A stretch of DNA of 8,042 nt, taken from contig CAYJVY010000012.1 in the NCBI GenBank assembly GCA_964373795.1, positions 27,728-35,769 of the forward strand, given 5' to 3'. Source of the stretch: an uncultured archaeon. Lineage in GTDB: Archaea; Iainarchaeota; Iainarchaeia; Iainarchaeales; DATDZZ01. Under the pieces are notes generated by a model. That model was not told the DNA's origin, did no database searches, and saw only the letters and a program-made list of their open reading frames with translations. Below are positions 68-7,878 of this stretch, one piece after another. The position numbers were made by a program, and so were the translations under genes. Positions within the stretch are counted from its first letter, which is position 1; each line of letters begins with the position of its first letter.

Positions 68-3000
68 TTGGAATTAAATTTAAATTCAATTGAGAGAGAG
101 GAAAAAGAAAATCCTTTCATTTCAAAGTTTGAACAGTTTTTTCATTTACGTTATAAAAAAGAAATTGAAAAACTTGCTTCGACTTATCCTGAAAAAAAAT
201 CTTTAAATATTGATTTCAATGAATTGGAAAGGTTTGATTTTGAATTAGCTGAGGAATTAATTTCAAATCCAGATTATTTAATTGATGCAGCGAAAGAAGC
301 AGTTAAATCAATTGATATTCCAAACCTTGGATTAGAGATAGAGTTTACTCCAAATATTCGTTTTTATAATTTGCCCAAAGACAGGGAAGTATTGCTTAGA
401 AATATTGGTTCAGAGCATTTAGGAAAACTAATTTCAGTTGAAGGAGTTATAAGGCAAATAACTGATGTATTGCCAAAATTGAAATTAGCTGTATGGGAGT
501 GCACTAAATGTGGCAACACTTATAAAATAAGTCAAGAAGGCCAGTCAATTAAAAAGCCTTCAATTTGTGAATGTAAAAACAAGGAATTTGATTTACTTGA
601 AGATAAATCTTTTTTTATTGATTATCAAAAAATTCAAATTCAAGAACCATTAGAAAAACTTAGAGGCCATGAACAACCAACTACTTTAAACATTTATGTT
701 TCAGATGACTTAGTAAACAAGGTTTCAGCTGGAGACAAAACAAGATTTGTAGGAGTTATTCGTTTACTTGTTCCAAGAGAAAGAAAAGTTGTTTATGGAA
801 GATTTTTAGAAGCAATTCATTTAGATGAAACTGAAAAAGAATTCAGTGAAGTAGAGGTTTCAAAAGAAGAAGAAGAACAAATAAAAGAATTATCTAAAAA
901 TCCTCAAATATATGACATTTTAGTTCAATCCATTGCTCCAAACATTTACGGACATGAAATAGTGAAAGAAGCAATTGCATTACAATTATTTGGAGGAGTA
1001 AAAAAATTACTTCCAAATAATACATCCATTAGAGGAAATATTCACTTACTAATTGTAGGAGATCCTGGAATGGCTAAATGCGTTAGTGGAGACACAAGAA
1101 TTTTATTAGAAGATGGAACTCAAACACGAATTGATCAATTTGTTGAAGAAAATTTACAAAAAAACCAGCAATTTAATTTAGAAGACGGAGTATACAGCAA
1201 CATCAACCAATTCATTCCAACAATAAATTTGGATGGAAAAATAAGTGAACAAAAAGCTTTAAGAGTTTATAAAAGAAAAGCTCCAAAAATGTATGAAATA
1301 AAAACAAGCACTGGAAAAAAAATAAAAGGAACGTACACTCATCCATTGTTTAGTTGTGAAAACGGAAAAGTTAAAGCTGTAAAAATAAGCAATTTAAAAA
1401 AAGGAGATTTTATAGCTATTCCAAGAAATATTAAAATAAATCCGGCAGAAATTTTGTTAAACAATGAAATAATTAAAGGAAAAACAAATGCTGCTCAGAT
1501 TAACTTGCCTTTAAAAGTATCAAAAGAACTCGCCAGGATATTAGCATATATTGCATCAGAAAGCCATATTTTTGATAAAACTAACAGCAAGTATGTTTCA
1601 TTCACCAATGTAGACAAAGAATTACTTGAAGACTTTTTTACTTGTGTTAAAAAAATATTTAACTTAAATCCAAAAATAAAAAAAAGAGAAAAAATAACTA
1701 CAATAAAGTTACACAGCACTGAATTGCATAATTTTTTAAAGCTAAATGCAAAAGAAGTGCTTGGAAAATCTAGAGATAAAAAAATTCCGGCAATAATAAT
1801 GAATTCAAATGATAACGTTGTAAAGGAATTTTTAAAAGCATTTATTAATGCAGAAGGATCAATAAGAAAAGATGAAAGAGGAATTGCAATAGTTTCTGCA
1901 AGCGAAGAACTATTAGAACAACTTCAAACACTATTGTTGAGATTTGGAATTGTAAGTTCAAAAAAAGCCATATGGAATGTAGCTACAAATACTATCAAAA
2001 AAGAAAAAAGAAAATATTATAGAATAAGATTTGCTGGACAATTTGCAATTGATTTCATAAACAAAATTGGATTTATAACTAAAAGAAAACAAGAAAAAGC
2101 AAAAAAAATAATTTTATCAAACAAAAAAACTAATTCAAACATTGATGTGATTCCAAATCTGAACGCATTATTAAAAGAAATTAGAATTAATTTAGGAATA
2201 AGCCAATTTAAAACAGGAATTGCTAGAACTTCTTTTCAACACTATGAAAGAGGAGATAGACTTCCAAGTAAAAAACAGTTAGGAAAAATTGTTTCAACTT
2301 TTTTAAAAGAATATGAACAAAAAAATTTATTTGACAAAAATCTTGAAAAAAAATTGCTGGATTTATTTAAGCTTTGGAAATCAGATATTTTTTGGGATAA
2401 AATAGAAGAAGTAAAAGAAATACCTTCAGATGAATGGGTTTACGATATAGAAGTAGAAAATAGCCATATTTTTATAACAAATAACATGTTTTCACATAAT
2501 TCCGCGCTTCTACAAGCAACAAATGAAATTGCTCCAAAATCAATTTATGTTGCAGGAAAAACTTCCTCCGGAGTTGGATTATGCGTAGCACCTGATTCAT
2601 TAATACTCAATGATAATGGTTTCAAAGAAATTAAAGAATTTGTTGAAGAAAACTTTGATAAAACAAAATCAAAAGAAGAAATATCGAATGCTTTTTCAAA
2701 TGATTTCTGTGGAAAGGCTCCAACACTTGAAAACAATTTAAAAGTAACAAATTCAGAAATATACAAAATTTGGAAAATAAAAGCTCCGGAAAGAATGATT
2801 AAGATAAGAACAATGTCTGGAAAAGAACTTGATTTAACTCCAAATACTTCTCTTGTTAGGATAAAAAATGATTCAATTGAGTGGATTAAGGCTTCAGAAA
2901 TTACAGAAAATGATTTTATTGCTTCATCTAGAATCTTGCCTGAAGGTGAAGTAAAAAACTATCCAACAATTAAAGTGTTATATGGAAATAAAAATATTAG

Positions 3001-6000
3001 AATAAGAGACAATGTTTTTACAATCTTTAAAGAAATAACTGACAAACTATTAAAAAAATATAAGTCAGTTAAAGAAATAGCAAAAAAACTTGGTATATCC
3101 AGAGAAAGAATTTATCTTTGGCGAACAAAAAACTATTCAAGTGGCATTCCTTTACATGCCTTTGTTTCACTTGGCTTGGAAGCAGGATACTCATTTGAAG
3201 AATTATCAAACCATGTTACAAAAATATTTTTGAGTTATGGAAAAAATGTAAAAATCCCTAGATATATTGATGATGAAGAAATAGCTTATCTTGCAGGATT
3301 GGTTTTAGGAGATGGAAGTATCTATCTTACAAAACGTTCTGCATCAATAAGGGTTTTCAACCAATCAGAAGAAATTTTGAAAAAAGTTGACAGCATAGTT
3401 GAAAAAACAATTGGAGCAAAAACAGAAAAAATAAGTGATGGAGTAAGAGTTCCAAATAGAAGAATTGCTTCAATACCTTTATACACAATATTAAACGCTT
3501 ATGGAATAGTTAAAGAAAAAAACAAAATCAGGATTTCATGTATTGCATCAGAGTTTTCAAACAAAGTTGTTTCAAAAATATTGCAAGGATTATTTGATAC
3601 TGATGGCTATACTGCTAAAACAAAAAAAGGTTCTCCACACATTGGTTTGAGAACAATAAGTAAAGATTTAGCAAAAACTGTGCTACTTTGCCTGCTAAAA
3701 TTTGGAATACATACAAAACTTAGGCTAAGAAAAGTAGCAGGAAGAATATCTATAGGAAAAAAAATAACTGTAAAAAGCAACAACAATCAATGGATTGTAG
3801 AGATTAGAGGAAAAGAAAACCTTGAAAAATTTGAAGAAAAAATAGGTTTCAACCTTCAAAGAAAAAGTAATTCATTAAGAGAAATAATTTCAGCCATATC
3901 GAAATCCAATACTAATATTGATGTTGTGCCACAAATAAAAGAAACATTAAAAGAACTATCAAAAACAGGTTATGCTATAAATTCTACAAAAAATATTTCA
4001 AGAAATAAATTGATTGAATTAGTAAAAAAACAAAAAACAAAAAATAATTTCTTAAAAAATTTATCTGATTCAGATATTTTTTGGGAAAAAGTTACAGAAA
4101 AGACAGAATTCAAACCAGAATATGATTTTGTATACGATTTCTCTGTCAAAGAAAGCCACAACTTTATTGCAAACGGAATATTTGTTCATAACACGGCTTC
4201 AGCAGTTAAAGATGATTTTGGTGAAGGAGGTTGGACTTTAAAAGCAGGAGCACTTGTTTTAGCTTCTGGAGGACTAGCCTTAGTTGATGAATTTGATAAA
4301 ATGGAGTGCTTGACTAGCGATGCATTAATTACTTTAGAAGATGGAACATTAAAACCATTAAAGGAATTATTTATAGAATCTACTTTAGAAAATGAAGTTG
4401 AAAATACAGTTAAAGGAAAAAGTGTGAAATCTTTAGAGAATTTCAGAGTTTTAAGCATGGATGAAAATGGAAAAATTATTGGAAAAAAATTGTTAAAAGT
4501 TCATGAATTTCCTTATTCAGGTAAATTGCTTAAAATAACTCTTGAAAGTGGTGAAACGCTAAAGGTTACTCCAAATCATCCGTTTTTTTGCTTGAATGAA
4601 AAAAGTGAAATTAAAACAATTAAAGCTGGTTTTTTAAGGAAAGGAATTTTCTTAACCTTGCCCAGAATAATTAATACTTTTTCTAGTCAAAAAATAAGTA
4701 ATGAATTAGCTAGAGTTTATGGTTATCTTGCTGGAGACGGAAATGTTTCTTGGAATCCAAATGAAAATTATTTTATTCGTTTTACAAATAAAGAAACAGA
4801 TTTAATAGAAGATTTCAATGAATGCATTCACAAAATAGGGTTTGAATCAAAGTTTTTTCCAAGTGATTCTAAAGAAAATGGAGTCATAACGCAGAGAGTT
4901 AATGGAAAAAAACTTGTTGAAGAAATTCAATTTAATGCACCTGGATTAATTGAAAAATATAGTAACAAGTATTCTCCAACAGATTTAGTGACTTCACCAA
5001 GCACTTCAAGCAATTATCTTAAAGGGTTATTTGATTCAGAAGGATTTGTAGATATAAAAAACAAGCAAATAAGTTTTTCTTCCACCAGCGAAAGATTAAC
5101 AATTGAAGTAAAGTCATTGCTTCTAAGATTTGGCATTCTAAGTCAAATTAGAGTTAGAAAAGCTGAACAAAATAGAAAAAAAAGCTTTATACTTAGAATA
5201 ACTAACCAAGATTCTATTCAAAAATTTTCTACTTTTATTTCTTTTACTCATAACAGGAAAAGAAAAAAATTGGAAGAAATATTGCAAAAAGAAAAATGTA
5301 ATAGAACTATAATAAATGTCATTCCAAATATTGGGGATTTATTAAAAGAAATTAGAATCAATTTAAAACTAAAACAAAGCGAGTGCGGACTAATTAAATC
5401 AACTTACAATAATTTTGAAAACAATGTTGCAAACATTTCAATTGAAAAAGCTGCACTAGTTCTTGAAAAATTTAAAGAAGCATCTTTAAAGCATGAAAAT
5501 GAATTAGTTAAAGAAAAAATAAAAACACTTGAAACATTAATTGATTCAGATCTTGTGTGGAGAAAAGTAAAAAAAATAGAAATAACAGAAACTAGTGAAG
5601 CAAAAGAATTGAATCATAAAATGATTAACGAACTAAATAAAGTTTTAGACATGTTAAGAGTAAATGAAAAAATAACTAAAAAAACTAGTTTTCAAGAATT
5701 GAAAAACATAGTCCAAAAAATTGAAAGAAAAATAAGTGAAATTGAAAAATGTAAAGAAAATAGTTTTGAAACATTAACTCCTTTATTAAATGAAATAAAG
5801 TTATTCAATATTAGTGAACAAGAAATAGCTTTAAAGCTTGAAGTAAATCAATCCACAATTCACAGATGGCTGAATAAAGAAGTAAAAACAGAAAAGTTAG
5901 AAGAAAAAATATCTGATGCATTCTATAAGATTTTGAATTCAATTGATTTAAATAAAGTAAATAAAGTTATTAAAAAAACAAAACTATATTTAGAGAAAGA

Positions 6001-6976
6001 AATAAAGATTTACGATCTAACTGTTGAAGATTCTCATAACTTTATTGCAAATAATATAATTGTTCACAACTCAGAAGACAGAAGTGCAATGCATGAAGCA
6101 ATGGAGCAAGGAAGGGTTTCAGTTGCAAAAGCAGGAATTGTTACTTCATTTAAAACTGATACAAGTGTTTTGGCTGCTGCCAATCCAAAATATTCTCGTT
6201 TCGATCCATACCAATCTTTTTTAGAACAAATTGATTTACCTTCAACTCTTATTTCCAGGTTTGACTTGTTCTTTCCAATTAAAGACGTACTAGATAGAGC
6301 TAAAGATAAAGAAATTGCTTCACACATTCTTGAAACCCATAAAACAGGTGAAATGTTAATTCAATCAAAGCTTAAAGGAAAAAATTTAAGTGAAGAACAA
6401 TCAAAGGAATTGAAAAAAATTATTCCAATAATTGACAACGAGTTATTAAAAAAATTCATTTCATTTGCAAGACAAAATGTTTTTCCTATACTGGAAAAAG
6501 AATCAATTCAAATGATTAGTGAATTCTATATTGATTTAAGAGATCAGGGAAGAAAAGAAGGAGCTTATTCTGCTACTCACAGACAATTAGAAGGACTTGT
6601 AAGATTAAGTGAGGCTTCAGCTAGAGTAAGACTTTCAGACAAAGTTGAATTAGAAGACGTTAAAAGAGCAATTAAATTAGTAAAATATTCATTAGAAGAA
6701 CTTGTAACTGATCCTGAAACAGGAAAAATTGACATTGATATTTTAACTGCAGGAATAACTCATACTCAAATAAGTAATCTTAAATCGGTTTTAAAAATAG
6801 TTAAAGACTTAGCTGAAACACAGGAAATGGTTTCAATTCAAGAAATAATTGACCAAGCAAAATCTGAAGGAATTGGAGAAGAAGAAAAAATTCGTGAATA
6901 TATTTCTACTTTGAAAAAGAAAGGGGAGTTATACGAGCCTCGTCATAACTTCTTAAAACCAACTAGCAAAAAATAA
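68..6976 (+). CDS. mcm: MCM (minichromosome maintenance) replicative helicase precursor, archaeal type, with three in-frame inteins; predicted mature protein 703 aa
   Basis: Single 2302-codon ORF. Extein segments are nt 68-1078 (aa 1-337), 2501-2581 (27 aa), 4193-4306 (38 aa) and 6071-6973 (301 aa). Joined, they give canonical MCM motifs. N-terminal domain has a CxxC...CxC zinc motif (CTKCGN...SICEC). Walker A is IVGDPGMAK|S and Walker B is LALVDEFDKME|SEDRSAMHEAMEQGRVSVAKAGI. Sensor 1 is VLAAANP, the arginine-finger region is LISRFDLFF, and sensor 2 is ATHRQLEGLVRLSEASARVRL. The C-terminal tail looks like a winged helix. Start is TTG at 68: it is the first ATG/GTG/TTG after the in-frame TGA at 20-22, and no in-frame ATG follows for 334 codons. 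Stop is TAA at 6974-6976. Confidence 0.93.
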   Translation: MELNLNSIEREEKENPFISKFEQFFHLRYKKEIEKLASTYPEKKSLNIDFNELERFDFELAEELISNPDYLIDAAKEAVKSIDIPNLGLEIEFTPNIRFYNLPKDREVLLRNIGSEHLGKLISVEGVIRQITDVLPKLKLAVWECTKCGNTYKISQEGQSIKKPSICECKNKEFDLLEDKSFFIDYQKIQIQEPLEKLRGHEQPTTLNIYVSDDLVNKVSAGDKTRFVGVIRLLVPRERKVVYGRFLEAIHLDETEKEFSEVEVSKEEEEQIKELSKNPQIYDILVQSIAPNIYGHEIVKEAIALQLFGGVKKLLPNNTSIRGNIHLLIVGDPGMAKCVSGDTRILLEDGTQTRIDQFVEENLQKNQQFNLEDGVYSNINQFIPTINLDGKISEQKALRVYKRKAPKMYEIKTSTGKKIKGTYTHPLFSCENGKVKAVKISNLKKGDFIAIPRNIKINPAEILLNNEIIKGKTNAAQINLPLKVSKELARILAYIASESHIFDKTNSKYVSFTNVDKELLEDFFTCVKKIFNLNPKIKKREKITTIKLHSTELHNFLKLNAKEVLGKSRDKKIPAIIMNSNDNVVKEFLKAFINAEGSIRKDERGIAIVSASEELLEQLQTLLLRFGIVSSKKAIWNVATNTIKKEKRKYYRIRFAGQFAIDFINKIGFITKRKQEKAKKIILSNKKTNSNIDVIPNLNALLKEIRINLGISQFKTGIARTSFQHYERGDRLPSKKQLGKIVSTFLKEYEQKNLFDKNLEKKLLDLFKLWKSDIFWDKIEEVKEIPSDEWVYDIEVENSHIFITNNMFSHNSALLQATNEIAPKSIYVAGKTSSGVGLCVAPDSLILNDNGFKEIKEFVEENFDKTKSKEEISNAFSNDFCGKAPTLENNLKVTNSEIYKIWKIKAPERMIKIRTMSGKELDLTPNTSLVRIKNDSIEWIKASEITENDFIASSRILPEGEVKNYPTIKVLYGNKNIRIRDNVFTIFKEITDKLLKKYKSVKEIAKKLGISRERIYLWRTKNYSSGIPLHAFVSLGLEAGYSFEELSNHVTKIFLSYGKNVKIPRYIDDEEIAYLAGLVLGDGSIYLTKRSASIRVFNQSEEILKKVDSIVEKTIGAKTEKISDGVRVPNRRIASIPLYTILNAYGIVKEKNKIRISCIASEFSNKVVSKILQGLFDTDGYTAKTKKGSPHIGLRTISKDLAKTVLLCLLKFGIHTKLRLRKVAGRISIGKKITVKSNNNQWIVEIRGKENLEKFEEKIGFNLQRKSNSLREIISAISKSNTNIDVVPQIKETLKELSKTGYAINSTKNISRNKLIELVKKQKTKNNFLKNLSDSDIFWEKVTEKTEFKPEYDFVYDFSVKESHNFIANGIFVHNTASAVKDDFGEGGWTLKAGALVLASGGLALVDEFDKMECLTSDALITLEDGTLKPLKELFIESTLENEVENTVKGKSVKSLENFRVLSMDENGKIIGKKLLKVHEFPYSGKLLKITLESGETLKVTPNHPFFCLNEKSEIKTIKAGFLRKGIFLTLPRIINTFSSQKISNELARVYGYLAGDGNVSWNPNENYFIRFTNKETDLIEDFNECIHKIGFESKFFPSDSKENGVITQRVNGKKLVEEIQFNAPGLIEKYSNKYSPTDLVTSPSTSSNYLKGLFDSEGFVDIKNKQISFSSTSERLTIEVKSLLLRFGILSQIRVRKAEQNRKKSFILRITNQDSIQKFSTFISFTHNRKRKKLEEILQKEKCNRTIINVIPNIGDLLKEIRINLKLKQSECGLIKSTYNNFENNVANISIEKAALVLEKFKEASLKHENELVKEKIKTLETLIDSDLVWRKVKKIEITETSEAKELNHKMINELNKVLDMLRVNEKITKKTSFQELKNIVQKIERKISEIEKCKENSFETLTPLLNEIKLFNISEQEIALKLEVNQSTIHRWLNKEVKTEKLEEKISDAFYKILNSIDLNKVNKVIKKTKLYLEKEIKIYDLTVEDSHNFIANNIIVHNSEDRSAMHEAMEQGRVSVAKAGIVTSFKTDTSVLAAANPKYSRFDPYQSFLEQIDLPSTLISRFDLFFPIKDVLDRAKDKEIASHILETHKTGEMLIQSKLKGKNLSEEQSKELKKIIPIIDNELLKKFISFARQNVFPILEKESIQMISEFYIDLRDQGRKEGAYSATHRQLEGLVRLSEASARVRLSDKVELEDVKRAIKLVKYSLEELVTDPETGKIDIDILTAGITHTQISNLKSVLKIVKDLAETQEMVSIQEIIDQAKSEGIGEEEKIREYISTLKKKGELYEPRHNFLKPTSKK
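500..574 (+). other. Zinc-binding motif of the MCM N-terminal domain
   Basis: Cys codons at 500-502, 509-511, 566-568 and 572-574 give C-x2-C-x18-C-x-C. This position matches the zinc motif of archaeal MCM N-terminal domains. Confidence 0.75.
1529..2100 (+). other. LAGLIDADG homing endonuclease domain of intein 1 (domain ends approximate)
   Basis: Two dodecapeptide motifs: LARILAYIASES (1529-1564) and FLKAFINAEGSI (1829-1864), each with an acidic residue at the catalytic position (Glu). The LLLRFGI motif typical of intein endonucleases follows motif 2. Confidence 0.8.
2168..2302 (+). other. XRE/Cro-C1-like helix-turn-helix module in intein 1, between endonuclease and block F
   Basis: LLKEIRINLGISQFKTGIARTSFQHYERGDRLPSKKQLGKIVSTF matches the XRE HTH pattern: hydrophobic-x-x-x-R, then G-x-S-Q, then a recognition helix, then x-E-R-G-x-R-x-P-S and a trailing helix. 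Confidence 0.6.
3065..3133 (+). other. Small helix-turn-helix in intein 2, between the N-terminal splicing region and the endonuclease
   Basis: SVKEIAKKLGISRERIYLWRTKN fits the common x-x-EIAxKLGxSxxTIxxW three-helix DNA-binding pattern seen in transposase, terminase and resolvase type HTHs. Confidence 0.55.
3281..3890 (+). other. LAGLIDADG homing endonuclease domain of intein 2 (domain ends approximate)
   Basis: Motifs IAYLAGLVLGDGSIY (3281-3325) and ILQGLFDTDGYT (3578-3613), both with the canonical catalytic Asp, followed by LLCLLKFGI. Confidence 0.85.
4706..5290 (+). other. LAGLIDADG homing endonuclease domain of intein 3 (domain ends approximate)
   Basis: Motifs LARVYGYLAGDGNVS (4706-4750) and YLKGLFDSEGFV (5015-5050), with Asp and Glu at the catalytic positions, followed by LLLRFGI. 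Confidence 0.85.
5339..5473 (+). other. XRE-like helix-turn-helix module in intein 3 (more degenerate), same relative position as in intein 1
   Basis: LLKEIRINLKLKQSECGLIKSTYNNFENNVANISIEKAALVLEKF. It shares the identical nonapeptide LLKEIRINL and the upstream VIPN with intein 1, and keeps the F-E-N...I-S-x-E-K-x-x-x-x-L layout. Confidence 0.5.
5810..5881 (+). other. Small helix-turn-helix inside the C-terminal insertion of intein 3
   Basis: ISEQEIALKLEVNQSTIHRWLNKE has the same EIAxKLxxxxSTIxRW pattern as the intein 2 HTH at 3065-3133. Confidence 0.55.
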
Positions 6977-7014: not shown

Positions 7015-7878
7015 TCAGAAAACAGCAATCAAAAGCACTCCAATAAACATTATTGCTGCACCAATTAATCTGTCCTTAATGTTTTTTTCTTTAAAAAAAA
7101 GCCAGCCAAAAAAAGTGCTAATTAAAGCACTTGTACGCTTGATTGCAATTACATAAACAACTAATGCCATACTCATTGCAATCATTTGAAATACAACTAA
7201 AAAAGACATTGCCAACCCACTAAAAATAATTGGTTTAAAATTTTCTTTAATTTGTGTAACAATGTTTTTTGACTTGAAAAGCATTACTGGAAAAAGCGCA
7301 AGTGTTAGGAAAAGACTTGTAATAATGCCCCAAAAAATTGGAGAAGAGTTTTGAATTCCGATTTTGTCATAAGCAGAACTAATTCCCCAAATAAATGCAA
7401 CAAGCAACATTAGCTTTACCCCTTTATTTTCAACTAATGCTTTTAATGGATTGAGCAAGCCAAGCTTGCCTTGCTTTATATTCAGAATATATGAACCAAT
7501 GACAACAAATATTACTCCAAGTAAACCAAAAAAACTTGGAATTTCATGCGCAATTAAAGGAGTTGTAAAAAGCAGAAAAACTGGAGTAAAATTAAGCATT
7601 GGAATTGCCAAAGACAAGTCAGAAACCTCTAATGCTTTAATGTAAAGAACTGTTGTCAAAGCATTTGTCAAGCCAACTACTACCAAAGCAAACCAAAAAT
7701 CTTTTCCAAATTCAGGAATTGAAGTAAACACAAGCCATGGAAGCAAAAACACAAGGCAAGCAAACCTGAAAGCAAATGCAATTACATATGCATCTGCTTT
7801 CCTAGTTGCTTGTTTTCTAAAAACATCTGCAAAAGAATTAGACAATGCACATAAAAATGAAAAAAAAATCCAAAGCAT
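7015..7878 (-). CDS. EamA-like transporter, drug/metabolite transporter (DMT) superfamily, about 10 predicted TM segments
   Basis: 287-aa ORF that is almost entirely hydrophobic helices separated by short polar or charged loops. It has a two-halves architecture. The C-terminal ...FFKEKNIKDRLIGAAIMFIGVLLIAVF is typical of EamA repeat ends. ATG at 7876-7878 (complement) and TGA at 7015-7017 (complement). Substrate cannot be inferred. Confidence 0.75.
   Translation of the reverse strand: MLWIFFSFLCALSNSFADVFRKQATRKADAYVIAFAFRFACLVFLLPWLVFTSIPEFGKDFWFALVVVGLTNALTTVLYIKALEVSDLSLAIPMLNFTPVFLLFTTPLIAHEIPSFFGLLGVIFVVIGSYILNIKQGKLGLLNPLKALVENKGVKLMLLVAFIWGISSAYDKIGIQNSSPIFWGIITSLFLTLALFPVMLFKSKNIVTQIKENFKPIIFSGLAMSFLVVFQMIAMSMALVVYVIAIKRTSALISTFFGWLFFKEKNIKDRLIGAAIMFIGVLLIAVF

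Follow-up and report, generated by a model that had tools for sequence, protein, structure and literature searches.

Inteins that bear a homing endonuclease (HEN) often hold further domains, and Beyer & Iwai (2022; PMC8966425) describe these accessory domains (ACDs) as diverse, often or sometimes helix-turn-helix (HTH)-like, modulating DNA cleavage and lying between the endonuclease and the Hint fold's C-terminal part. The same work singles out the DNA recognition region (DRR) of PI-SceI, the yeast VMA1 intein, as a DNA-binding insertion into Hint and as the lone exception in location. According to Beyer et al. (2019; PMC6801210), every intein endonuclease sits at one conserved site, and clashes with the host protein are argued to restrict insertions elsewhere in Hint; the one other insertion that they mention is small, specific to thermophiles and situated between blocks A and B. 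Here we analyse a stretch of 8,042 nucleotides from an uncultured archaeon of the Iainarchaeota (contig CAYJVY010000012.1; the whole stretch is called the window below), whose gene for the MCM replicative helicase encodes three inteins. The third of them, intein 3, carries a 138-residue insert within its C-terminal Hint half. Judging by the sequences collected, this insert is a conserved family trait of endonuclease-bearing inteins at the same MCM site (MCM-c) and not peculiar to the window gene, since homologous inteins at that site commonly share the architecture. In our view it is probably a second DNA-binding domain of the accessory kind, descended from HTH modules of the intein itself, which would serve homing-site recognition and be unneeded for splicing.

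Intein 3 and its parts lie in the window as follows:

4307..6070, + strand: intein 3, 588 aa; the insertion point follows DEFDKME, four residues beyond Walker B
4307..4681, + strand: N-terminal Hint half, aa 1-125; matches PF14890 from profile position 1, with beta strands at 7-119 in the model
4682..5311, + strand: LAGLIDADG homing endonuclease domain, aa 126-335; motifs YLAGDGNV and LFDSEGFV; PF14528
5312..5545, + strand: canonical accessory domain, aa 336-413; XRE-type HTH_3 and a long helix, at the boundary of endonuclease and C-terminal Hint part
5546..5590, + strand: penultimate Hint strand ("W-strand", SDLVWRKVKKIEITE); end of the first PF14890 stretch; model strand 416-427
5591..6004, + strand: insert, aa 429-566, 138 aa; predicted to be an independently folding seven-helix domain
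5615..5755, + strand: N-terminal helices of the insert, aa 437-449 and 462-483; fast-evolving
5774..5872, + strand: HTH core of the insert, aa 490-522; recognition helix QSTIHRW
5897..5992, + strand: C-terminal helices of the insert, aa 531-544 and 548-562, which return the chain to block F; poorly conserved
6005..6070, + strand: Hint blocks F and G (KIYDLTVEDSHNFIANNIIVHN); PF14890 profile 132-155; strands 567-573, 578-581 and 584-587

The splicing residues read from the translation are Cys1, TPNH (block B), KIYD (block F), the terminal VHN and Ser+1, and PF14890 (Intein_splicing) matches in two stretches at 98.2 bits (cut-off 35.8), as in a class 1 intein; the last 24 aa alone reach 36.0 bits (E 7e-9). 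PF14528 matches at 92.7 bits (E 1.7e-26), also in two stretches, giving a two-motif endonuclease with acidic catalytic residues at the canonical site, for which Foldseek returned the TliVMA intein, PI-PfuI, PI-TkoII and I-DmoI. The canonical accessory domain (PF01381 HTH_3 at intein residues 346-389, E 9e-7; helices 343-413 in the model) lies between the endonuclease and the C-terminal Hint part, where an ACD is expected.

The initial annotation of this DNA had placed about 138 residues at nt 5591-6004 between two named strands, and the translation bears out these coordinates exactly: the segment, 138 aa (TSEAKELNHK...LYLEKEI) in the MCM frame, is adjoined upstream by the W-strand sequence DLVWRKVKKIEITE (nt 5549-5590) and downstream by KIYDLTVEDSHNF (nt 6005-6043), in which block F reads KIYDLTV, and it ends ~22 residues from the intein C-terminus. 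In ordinary inteins the penultimate Hint strand and the block F strand form a hairpin. The proposal that the insertion falls within this C-terminal Hint half, and not in the usual linker after the endonuclease, is borne out by an alignment gap, a profile break and a structural model. In a MAFFT alignment of the window's three inteins, inteins 1 and 2 are wholly gapped across the insert and pass from the DIFW(D/E)K strand to the VYD block F, where DIFWDKIEEVKEI and DIFWEKVTEKTE are the homologues of the intein 3 W-strand. On intein 3 the PF14890 profile runs from position 1 to 132, stops at intein residue 430 and resumes with positions 132-155 in the last 24 residues; in intein 1, profile positions 115-155 are spanned by 41 contiguous residues. 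A query of 49 residues from intein 1 (W-strand, turn and blocks F/G) aligned without gaps to all solved inteins detected (~17), including PI-TkoII, TliVMA, PhoCDC21-1, Ssp DnaB, Pho RadA and gp41-1. The five distant inteins that are the only matches of the whole of intein 3 in a word-indexed protein search all have short hairpins, with 3-7 residues where the insert sits.

AlphaFold2, run on intein 3 with a 14-sequence alignment (predicted local distance difference test, pLDDT, 90.4; predicted template modelling score, pTM, 0.88), places strand 416-427 first, then helices 437-449, 462-483, 490-499, 504-511, 515-522, 531-544 and 548-562, and then strand 567-573. The insert is thus predicted as a separate domain between the two strands, a point that the initial annotation had proposed to check in this way. 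When the insert was predicted alone with its homologues (pLDDT 90.1, pTM 0.77), its helices measured 13, 22, 10, 8, 8, 14 and 18 residues, lengths that indicate a compact bundle and not an extended coiled coil. Foldseek found no whole-domain fold relative of it in the PDB or BFVD.

The segment had been characterized as charged, repetitive and K/E/I/L-rich, with a coiled coil suggested on that basis. It is indeed charged (36%) and K/E/I/L-rich (55%), against 29% and 42% in the remaining intein 3; repetitive it is not, as DNA repeat and tandem-repeat scans yielded short AT-rich chance matches only and no meaningful direct or tandem repeats. Helical sequence encoded by an AT-rich genome accounts for the richness; in intein 3 the canonical accessory domain has 54% K/E/I/L, and one haloarchaeal homologue of the insert (P0009) has 22%. 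A coiled-coil dimerisation or protein-protein arm, which might pair two inteins or dock a host factor, could appeal to this composition and to the long helices of the window copy. We nevertheless consider such an arm very improbable. The longest predicted helix has 22 residues and belongs to a compact seven-helix domain (no dedicated coiled-coil predictor was run), the composition is not kept in the one haloarchaeal homologue checked, and the LAGLIDADG domain, which already holds both motifs in one chain, needs no dimer; the dimerisation arm offered in the initial annotation is given up together with the coiled coil.

The HTH reported there is, on the other hand, retained, being matched to XRE-type HTHs by a family profile and by Pfam. 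The motif ISEQEIALKLEVNQSTIHRWLNKE lies at nt 5810-5881. Searched against PDB sequences, a profile of the insert family found the HigA antitoxin (E 1.4e-4) and other XRE proteins, and 8 of the 13 homologous inserts match HTH_31 (PF13560), as 8 also match HTH_3, at E <= 0.01 (best 8e-6). Foldseek of the insert gave weak sub-domain matches, with E near 1, to HigA, C.Esp1396I, 434 Cro and XRE proteins, one example being 44 columns at 0.5 Å to a phage XRE protein. V85, T89, R92 and W93 of the insert are invariant across the 13 homologues, and a recognition helix of the form [SA]T[VILF][STH]RW is present in 25/25 endonuclease-bearing MCM-c inteins. On this profile evidence the insert is a compact helical domain with a predicted XRE/Cro-type HTH core. 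In one Halorubrum assembly (sp. Atlit-8R; P0041), PGAP labels a 164-aa fragment of an MCM-c intein "XRE family transcriptional regulator, partial", a naming that shows how the insert is mis-annotated where assemblies break inside the intein.

The insert might also be what remains of a foreign mobile element, either nested or of the transposase-HTH type, after an invasion of the intein gene. There is a weak match to HTH_Tnp_1_2 (E 6e-4, 20.4 bits, under the threshold of 27.9), and the GC content of the insert is 0.215 against 0.277 in the rest of the gene, a low value that is due to its K/E/I/N-rich composition. Repeats, Hint or nuclease motifs and flanking duplications are all absent, however, and its best specific relative is the upstream HTH module of the intein family itself (see below), so that we give this origin very little credence. 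Two narrower identities were tried and rejected: a transposase HTH, the HTH_Tnp_1_2 match being sub-threshold, and a nested intein, as the insert contains no Hint motifs.

Relatives of the insert escaped word-indexed protein searches: a query of W-strand plus insert had no matches, and the insert profile found one fragment. They were recovered by an exhaustive HMMER search with strand, insert and blocks F/G as the query, in which phmmer E-values went down to 4e-14; two DPANN-type MCMs (P0006, P0011) matched over the full length and many haloarchaeal MCMs over the HTH half, in every case at this one MCM site. In two GTDB genomes the MCM-c site is occupied by an intein (L001, L004), and the insert is found in both. 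A metagenome scan keyed on block F and the C-extein junction added 23 further MCM-c inteins with the insert and 18 mini loci without it (17 complete, one represented by its last 21 residues only). Any endonuclease-bearing allele without an insert would have ranked among the minis in that scan; no such allele occurs among the 25 complete, non-identical endonuclease-bearing inteins collected. The alleles at MCM-c fall into three types:

Endonuclease-bearing, DPANN type: n = 4; 587-588 aa; 146 residues from strand to block F
Endonuclease-bearing, haloarchaeal type: n = 21; 637-657 aa; 122-126 residues from strand to block F
Mini-inteins: n = 18; 172-211 aa; a turn of 6-8 residues

The insert is 138 aa long in the four DPANN/Iainarchaeota-like inteins and ~115 aa in the 21 haloarchaeal ones, which are without the first helix of the window's insert; the strand-to-block F distance is fixed within each group, at 146 residues in the four DPANN inteins and 122-126 in more than 25 haloarchaeal ones. 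In addition, hhalign relates the two groups of inserts with a probability of 98%. The initial annotation had named the same architecture being common in homologous inteins as grounds for abandoning its view, and this is what we find at MCM-c. Its word "unusual" holds for the site when compared with solved intein structures and fails among the endonuclease-bearing MCM-c inteins, where the insert is the norm. One intein lineage with one architecture occurs in low-GC DPANN (P0006, P0011, L001, L004) and in high-GC haloarchaeal (P0007-P0022) MCM genes, which implies either old inheritance or intein transfer across phyla. Two contigs binned as "Candidatus Falkowbacteria bacterium" (L007) and "Chloroflexi bacterium" (L038) encode an archaeal MCM that is 55-61% identical to the window extein, and are probably mis-binned.

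The presence of the insert follows that of the endonuclease. Both are there in 25/25 complete HEN-bearing MCM-c inteins and both are missing from 18/18 minis. A neighbour-joining tree made from the Hint parts only shows the minis interspersed with full-length alleles. Mini L116 and full-length L102 are 95% identical over the N-terminal Hint half (tree distance 0.04), and mini L118 and full-length L103 ~84% (tree distance 0.16). Both minis retain a recognisable W-strand (DVALRRV in L116, DIALRQV in L118), while the endonuclease-plus-accessory block that should precede it is gone, as is the insert that should follow; because the strand was kept between the lost segments, two separate deletions must have taken place. 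An intact reading frame with a Hint fold thus does not depend on the insert, which tends to be lost along with the endonuclease. Measured against the description of Beyer & Iwai (2022), it accompanies the endonuclease and seems dispensable for the Hint fold as an ACD would (25/25 HEN-bearing, 0/18 mini MCM-c inteins), and it lies elsewhere, following the opening strand of Hint's C-terminal part. The W-strand motif D[VL][KRV]WR[KRQ][VI] is itself near-invariant in endonuclease-bearing alleles and degenerate in minis, which suggests that the strand packs against inserted or accessory domains.

These alleles bear directly on the idea, raised in the initial annotation as a regulatory plug, that the insert regulates splicing; it might gate splicing on DNA or another ligand and make maturation of the MCM helicase conditional. 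At its C-terminal junction the insert adjoins block F, whose catalytic aspartate (KIYD) comes about three residues later, and some archaeal inteins need endonuclease or linker regions for splicing (PMC10643990, PMC6801210). The 18 MCM-c minis nevertheless do without the insert in intact MCM reading frames, the insert co-varies with the endonuclease rather than with the Hint domain, and no data point to a ligand besides DNA; we consider a regulatory role unlikely. A more specific version, in which the hairpin is a natural third permissive site of Hint and the HTH there gates splicing allosterically on binding of homing-site or other DNA, strikes us as slightly harder still to credit. If the gating were real, maturation of a replicative helicase would be tied to DNA, and for split or switchable inteins the hairpin site could provide a template that is both new and natural.

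As to where the insert came from, a recent internal duplication finds no support: when the insert was compared by BLASTP with the upstream accessory region and with the remainder of the protein, nothing significant emerged (E >= 0.19). The haloarchaeal MCM-c inteins, however, have a second accessory HTH module upstream of the W-strand (SW..L..L..H.SQ.ELA....SQQ.ISR.W), to which the insert HTH is related in hhalign at a probability of 96% (E 6e-9, a single comparison), whereas the first accessory module (HTH_3) gave no hhalign match. The accessory modules of the intein lineage itself are therefore the likeliest source of the insert. Evolutionary rates are uneven along the intein. Between the window and its three DPANN relatives, the Hint-N, endonuclease and canonical accessory domains are 46-59% identical, the insert HTH 34-40% and its flanking helices 7-19%; the N-terminal helices of the insert have 5-19% identity to homologues, and across homologues the flanking helices show 5-21% identity, against ~30-60% elsewhere in the intein. 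From these alignments, constraint within the insert is evidently concentrated on the HTH.

Such rapid change of the flanking helices, which are the fastest-evolving part of the intein, could also mark a tolerated relic, that is, a duplicated accessory module left in a permissive loop, harmless, hard to delete cleanly and now functionless. The failure to find a whole-domain structural relative in the PDB or BFVD fits this as well. A relic would not be expected to stay constant in length in two phyla whose inteins are ~30% identical overall, to preserve the V..T..RW of its recognition helix without variation and to give a confident stand-alone fold prediction, and clean deletions do happen, but only together with loss of the endonuclease. 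On balance we find a relic unlikely, if less so than a splicing regulator.

Among the roles suggested in the initial annotation, an extra DNA-binding arm fits the evidence best, with the DNA binding itself a prediction from the HTH. For the second accessory domain that we favour, the following picture may be drawn. Duplication or relocation of one of the intein's own accessory HTH modules would have put the domain at the tip of the beta-hairpin that block F makes with the penultimate Hint strand, where its N- and C-terminal helices may form a stalk that lets the chain exit and re-enter the hairpin. The HTH would then contact MCM homing-site DNA beside the LAGLIDADG domain and the canonical HTH_3 accessory domain, and this contact would extend or tune target recognition, the Hint fold and splicing presumably having no need of it.

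Several points weigh against this picture. DNA binding, the homing role and the geometry of the stalk are what we infer; the pairing of strands 416-427 and 567-573 is likewise taken from homology to ordinary inteins. The window insert alone scores 15.9 bits against HTH_3 (PF01381), under the Pfam threshold of 23, and most of the insert beyond its HTH changes more quickly than all other parts of the intein, as would also be expected under weak constraint. The Hint-only tree is built on 134 residues and is without support values. Co-occurrence of HEN and insert could partly reflect shared ancestry and recombination between alleles, and such recombination could also inflate the apparent count of independent losses.

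The host gene and its other two inteins are arranged as follows:

68..6976, + strand: MCM replicative helicase precursor, a single open reading frame of 2302 codons with three inteins, at sites a, b and c
1079-2500, + strand: intein 1, inserted after the Walker A lysine
2582-4192, + strand: intein 2, 27 residues downstream of intein 1

The gene caller reports the precursor as one gene of 2302 aa, in which Pfam recognizes MCM_N, MCM_OB, MCM, MCM_lid, three Intein_splicing domains and LAGLIDADG_3; inteins make up 1599/2302 codons (~70%) of the reading frame. The positions of inteins 1, 2 and 3 correspond to MCM sites a, b and c in the haloarchaeal nomenclature (PMC3972481, PMC10643990), and site d (after HEAMEQ) is unoccupied. 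All three inteins retain both LAGLIDADG motifs. The nearest relatives of the extein are MCMs of "Candidatus Iainarchaeum" and other DPANN-type metagenome-assembled genomes, and the G+C content of the window DNA is 28%. Intein 2 has an extra HTH of its own (NUMOD1/HTH_23-like, KSVKEIAKKLGISRERIYLWRTKN; window 3005-3130, intein residues 142-183) within a ~95-residue segment N-terminal to the LAGLIDADG domain, which inteins 1 and 3 are without; accessory HTH modules therefore occupy three different positions across the inteins of one gene. Downstream of the MCM gene, a convergent gene for an EamA-family transporter (287 aa) lies on the - strand at window 7015-7878, and beyond it on the contig come SPP-peptidase-like and VTT-domain genes, with no obvious link to MCM.

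The insert will be of interest mainly to intein structural biologists and engineers, and it leaves the understanding of splicing chemistry unchanged. The pairs L102/L116 and L103/L118 are natural, near-isogenic alleles with and without the insert, suited to testing the role of an accessory domain in homing, and the loop between W-strand and block F is a candidate permissive loop for engineered domain insertions or intein split sites. A lineage that spans haloarchaea and DPANN keeps an autonomous HTH domain in a non-canonical loop and drops it when the endonuclease is lost, in contrast to the view from structural work that large insertions into Hint are nearly limited to a single site (PMC6801210).

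Compared with known systems, the insert resembles several of them in part. Like the ACD or "stirrup" of PI-PfuI, PI-TkoII and the TliVMA intein, it is an extra domain of a diverse, often HTH-like kind that accompanies a LAGLIDADG endonuclease, but those ACDs lie at the single canonical site ("C35"), and the insert comes later, once the C-terminal Hint half has begun with its first strand. In PI-TkoII and TliVMA the hairpin is contiguous (2cw7 residues 493-529 and 7qss residues 393-426 align without a gap), whereas that of intein 3 is interrupted; by sequence alignment, "domain IV" of PI-TkoII is not in the W-strand/block F hairpin either. The thermophile insertion between blocks A and B (PMC6801210) is also a natural Hint insertion outside the canonical endonuclease site, but it comprises only a short helix and two strands, belongs to the N-terminal half and is assumed to have a structural role, in contrast to an autonomous domain of 115-138 aa in the C-terminal half. 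The core of the insert, four short helices with QST[IV]xRW, matches the XRE/Cro-C1 HTH domains (HTH_3 and HTH_31; HigA, 434 Cro and repressor, C.Esp1396I) in profile comparisons and in weak Foldseek hits to sub-domains. It differs from them in that further helices on its N- and C-terminal sides make it part of a seven-helix domain, which interrupts a beta-hairpin of an enzyme fold.

The haloarchaeal MCM-c (cdc21) inteins (MacNeill lab 2014, PMC3972481; Gogarten/Papke labs 2023, PMC10643990) share the MCM site, the lineage (~30% whole-intein identity) and the position of the insert with intein 3, and differ from it by one more HTH module upstream of the W-strand and by a shorter insert. The two papers that define the MCM-c site give the site and allele counts and make no mention of the insert architecture, and in the open-access literature we found no description of a domain in the W-strand/block F hairpin. 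The closest functional analogy is the DRR of PI-SceI, likewise a module inserted in the Hint fold itself (PMC8966425). DNA binding has been demonstrated by experiment for the DRR, which is not known to be an XRE-type HTH, whereas binding by the insert is predicted; the insert has no sequence or Foldseek similarity to the DRR and is not classed as one. The DRR lies in the N-terminal Hint half. After it, the insert of intein 3, with its predicted DNA binding, would be the second natural case of a DNA-binding module grafted onto Hint itself.

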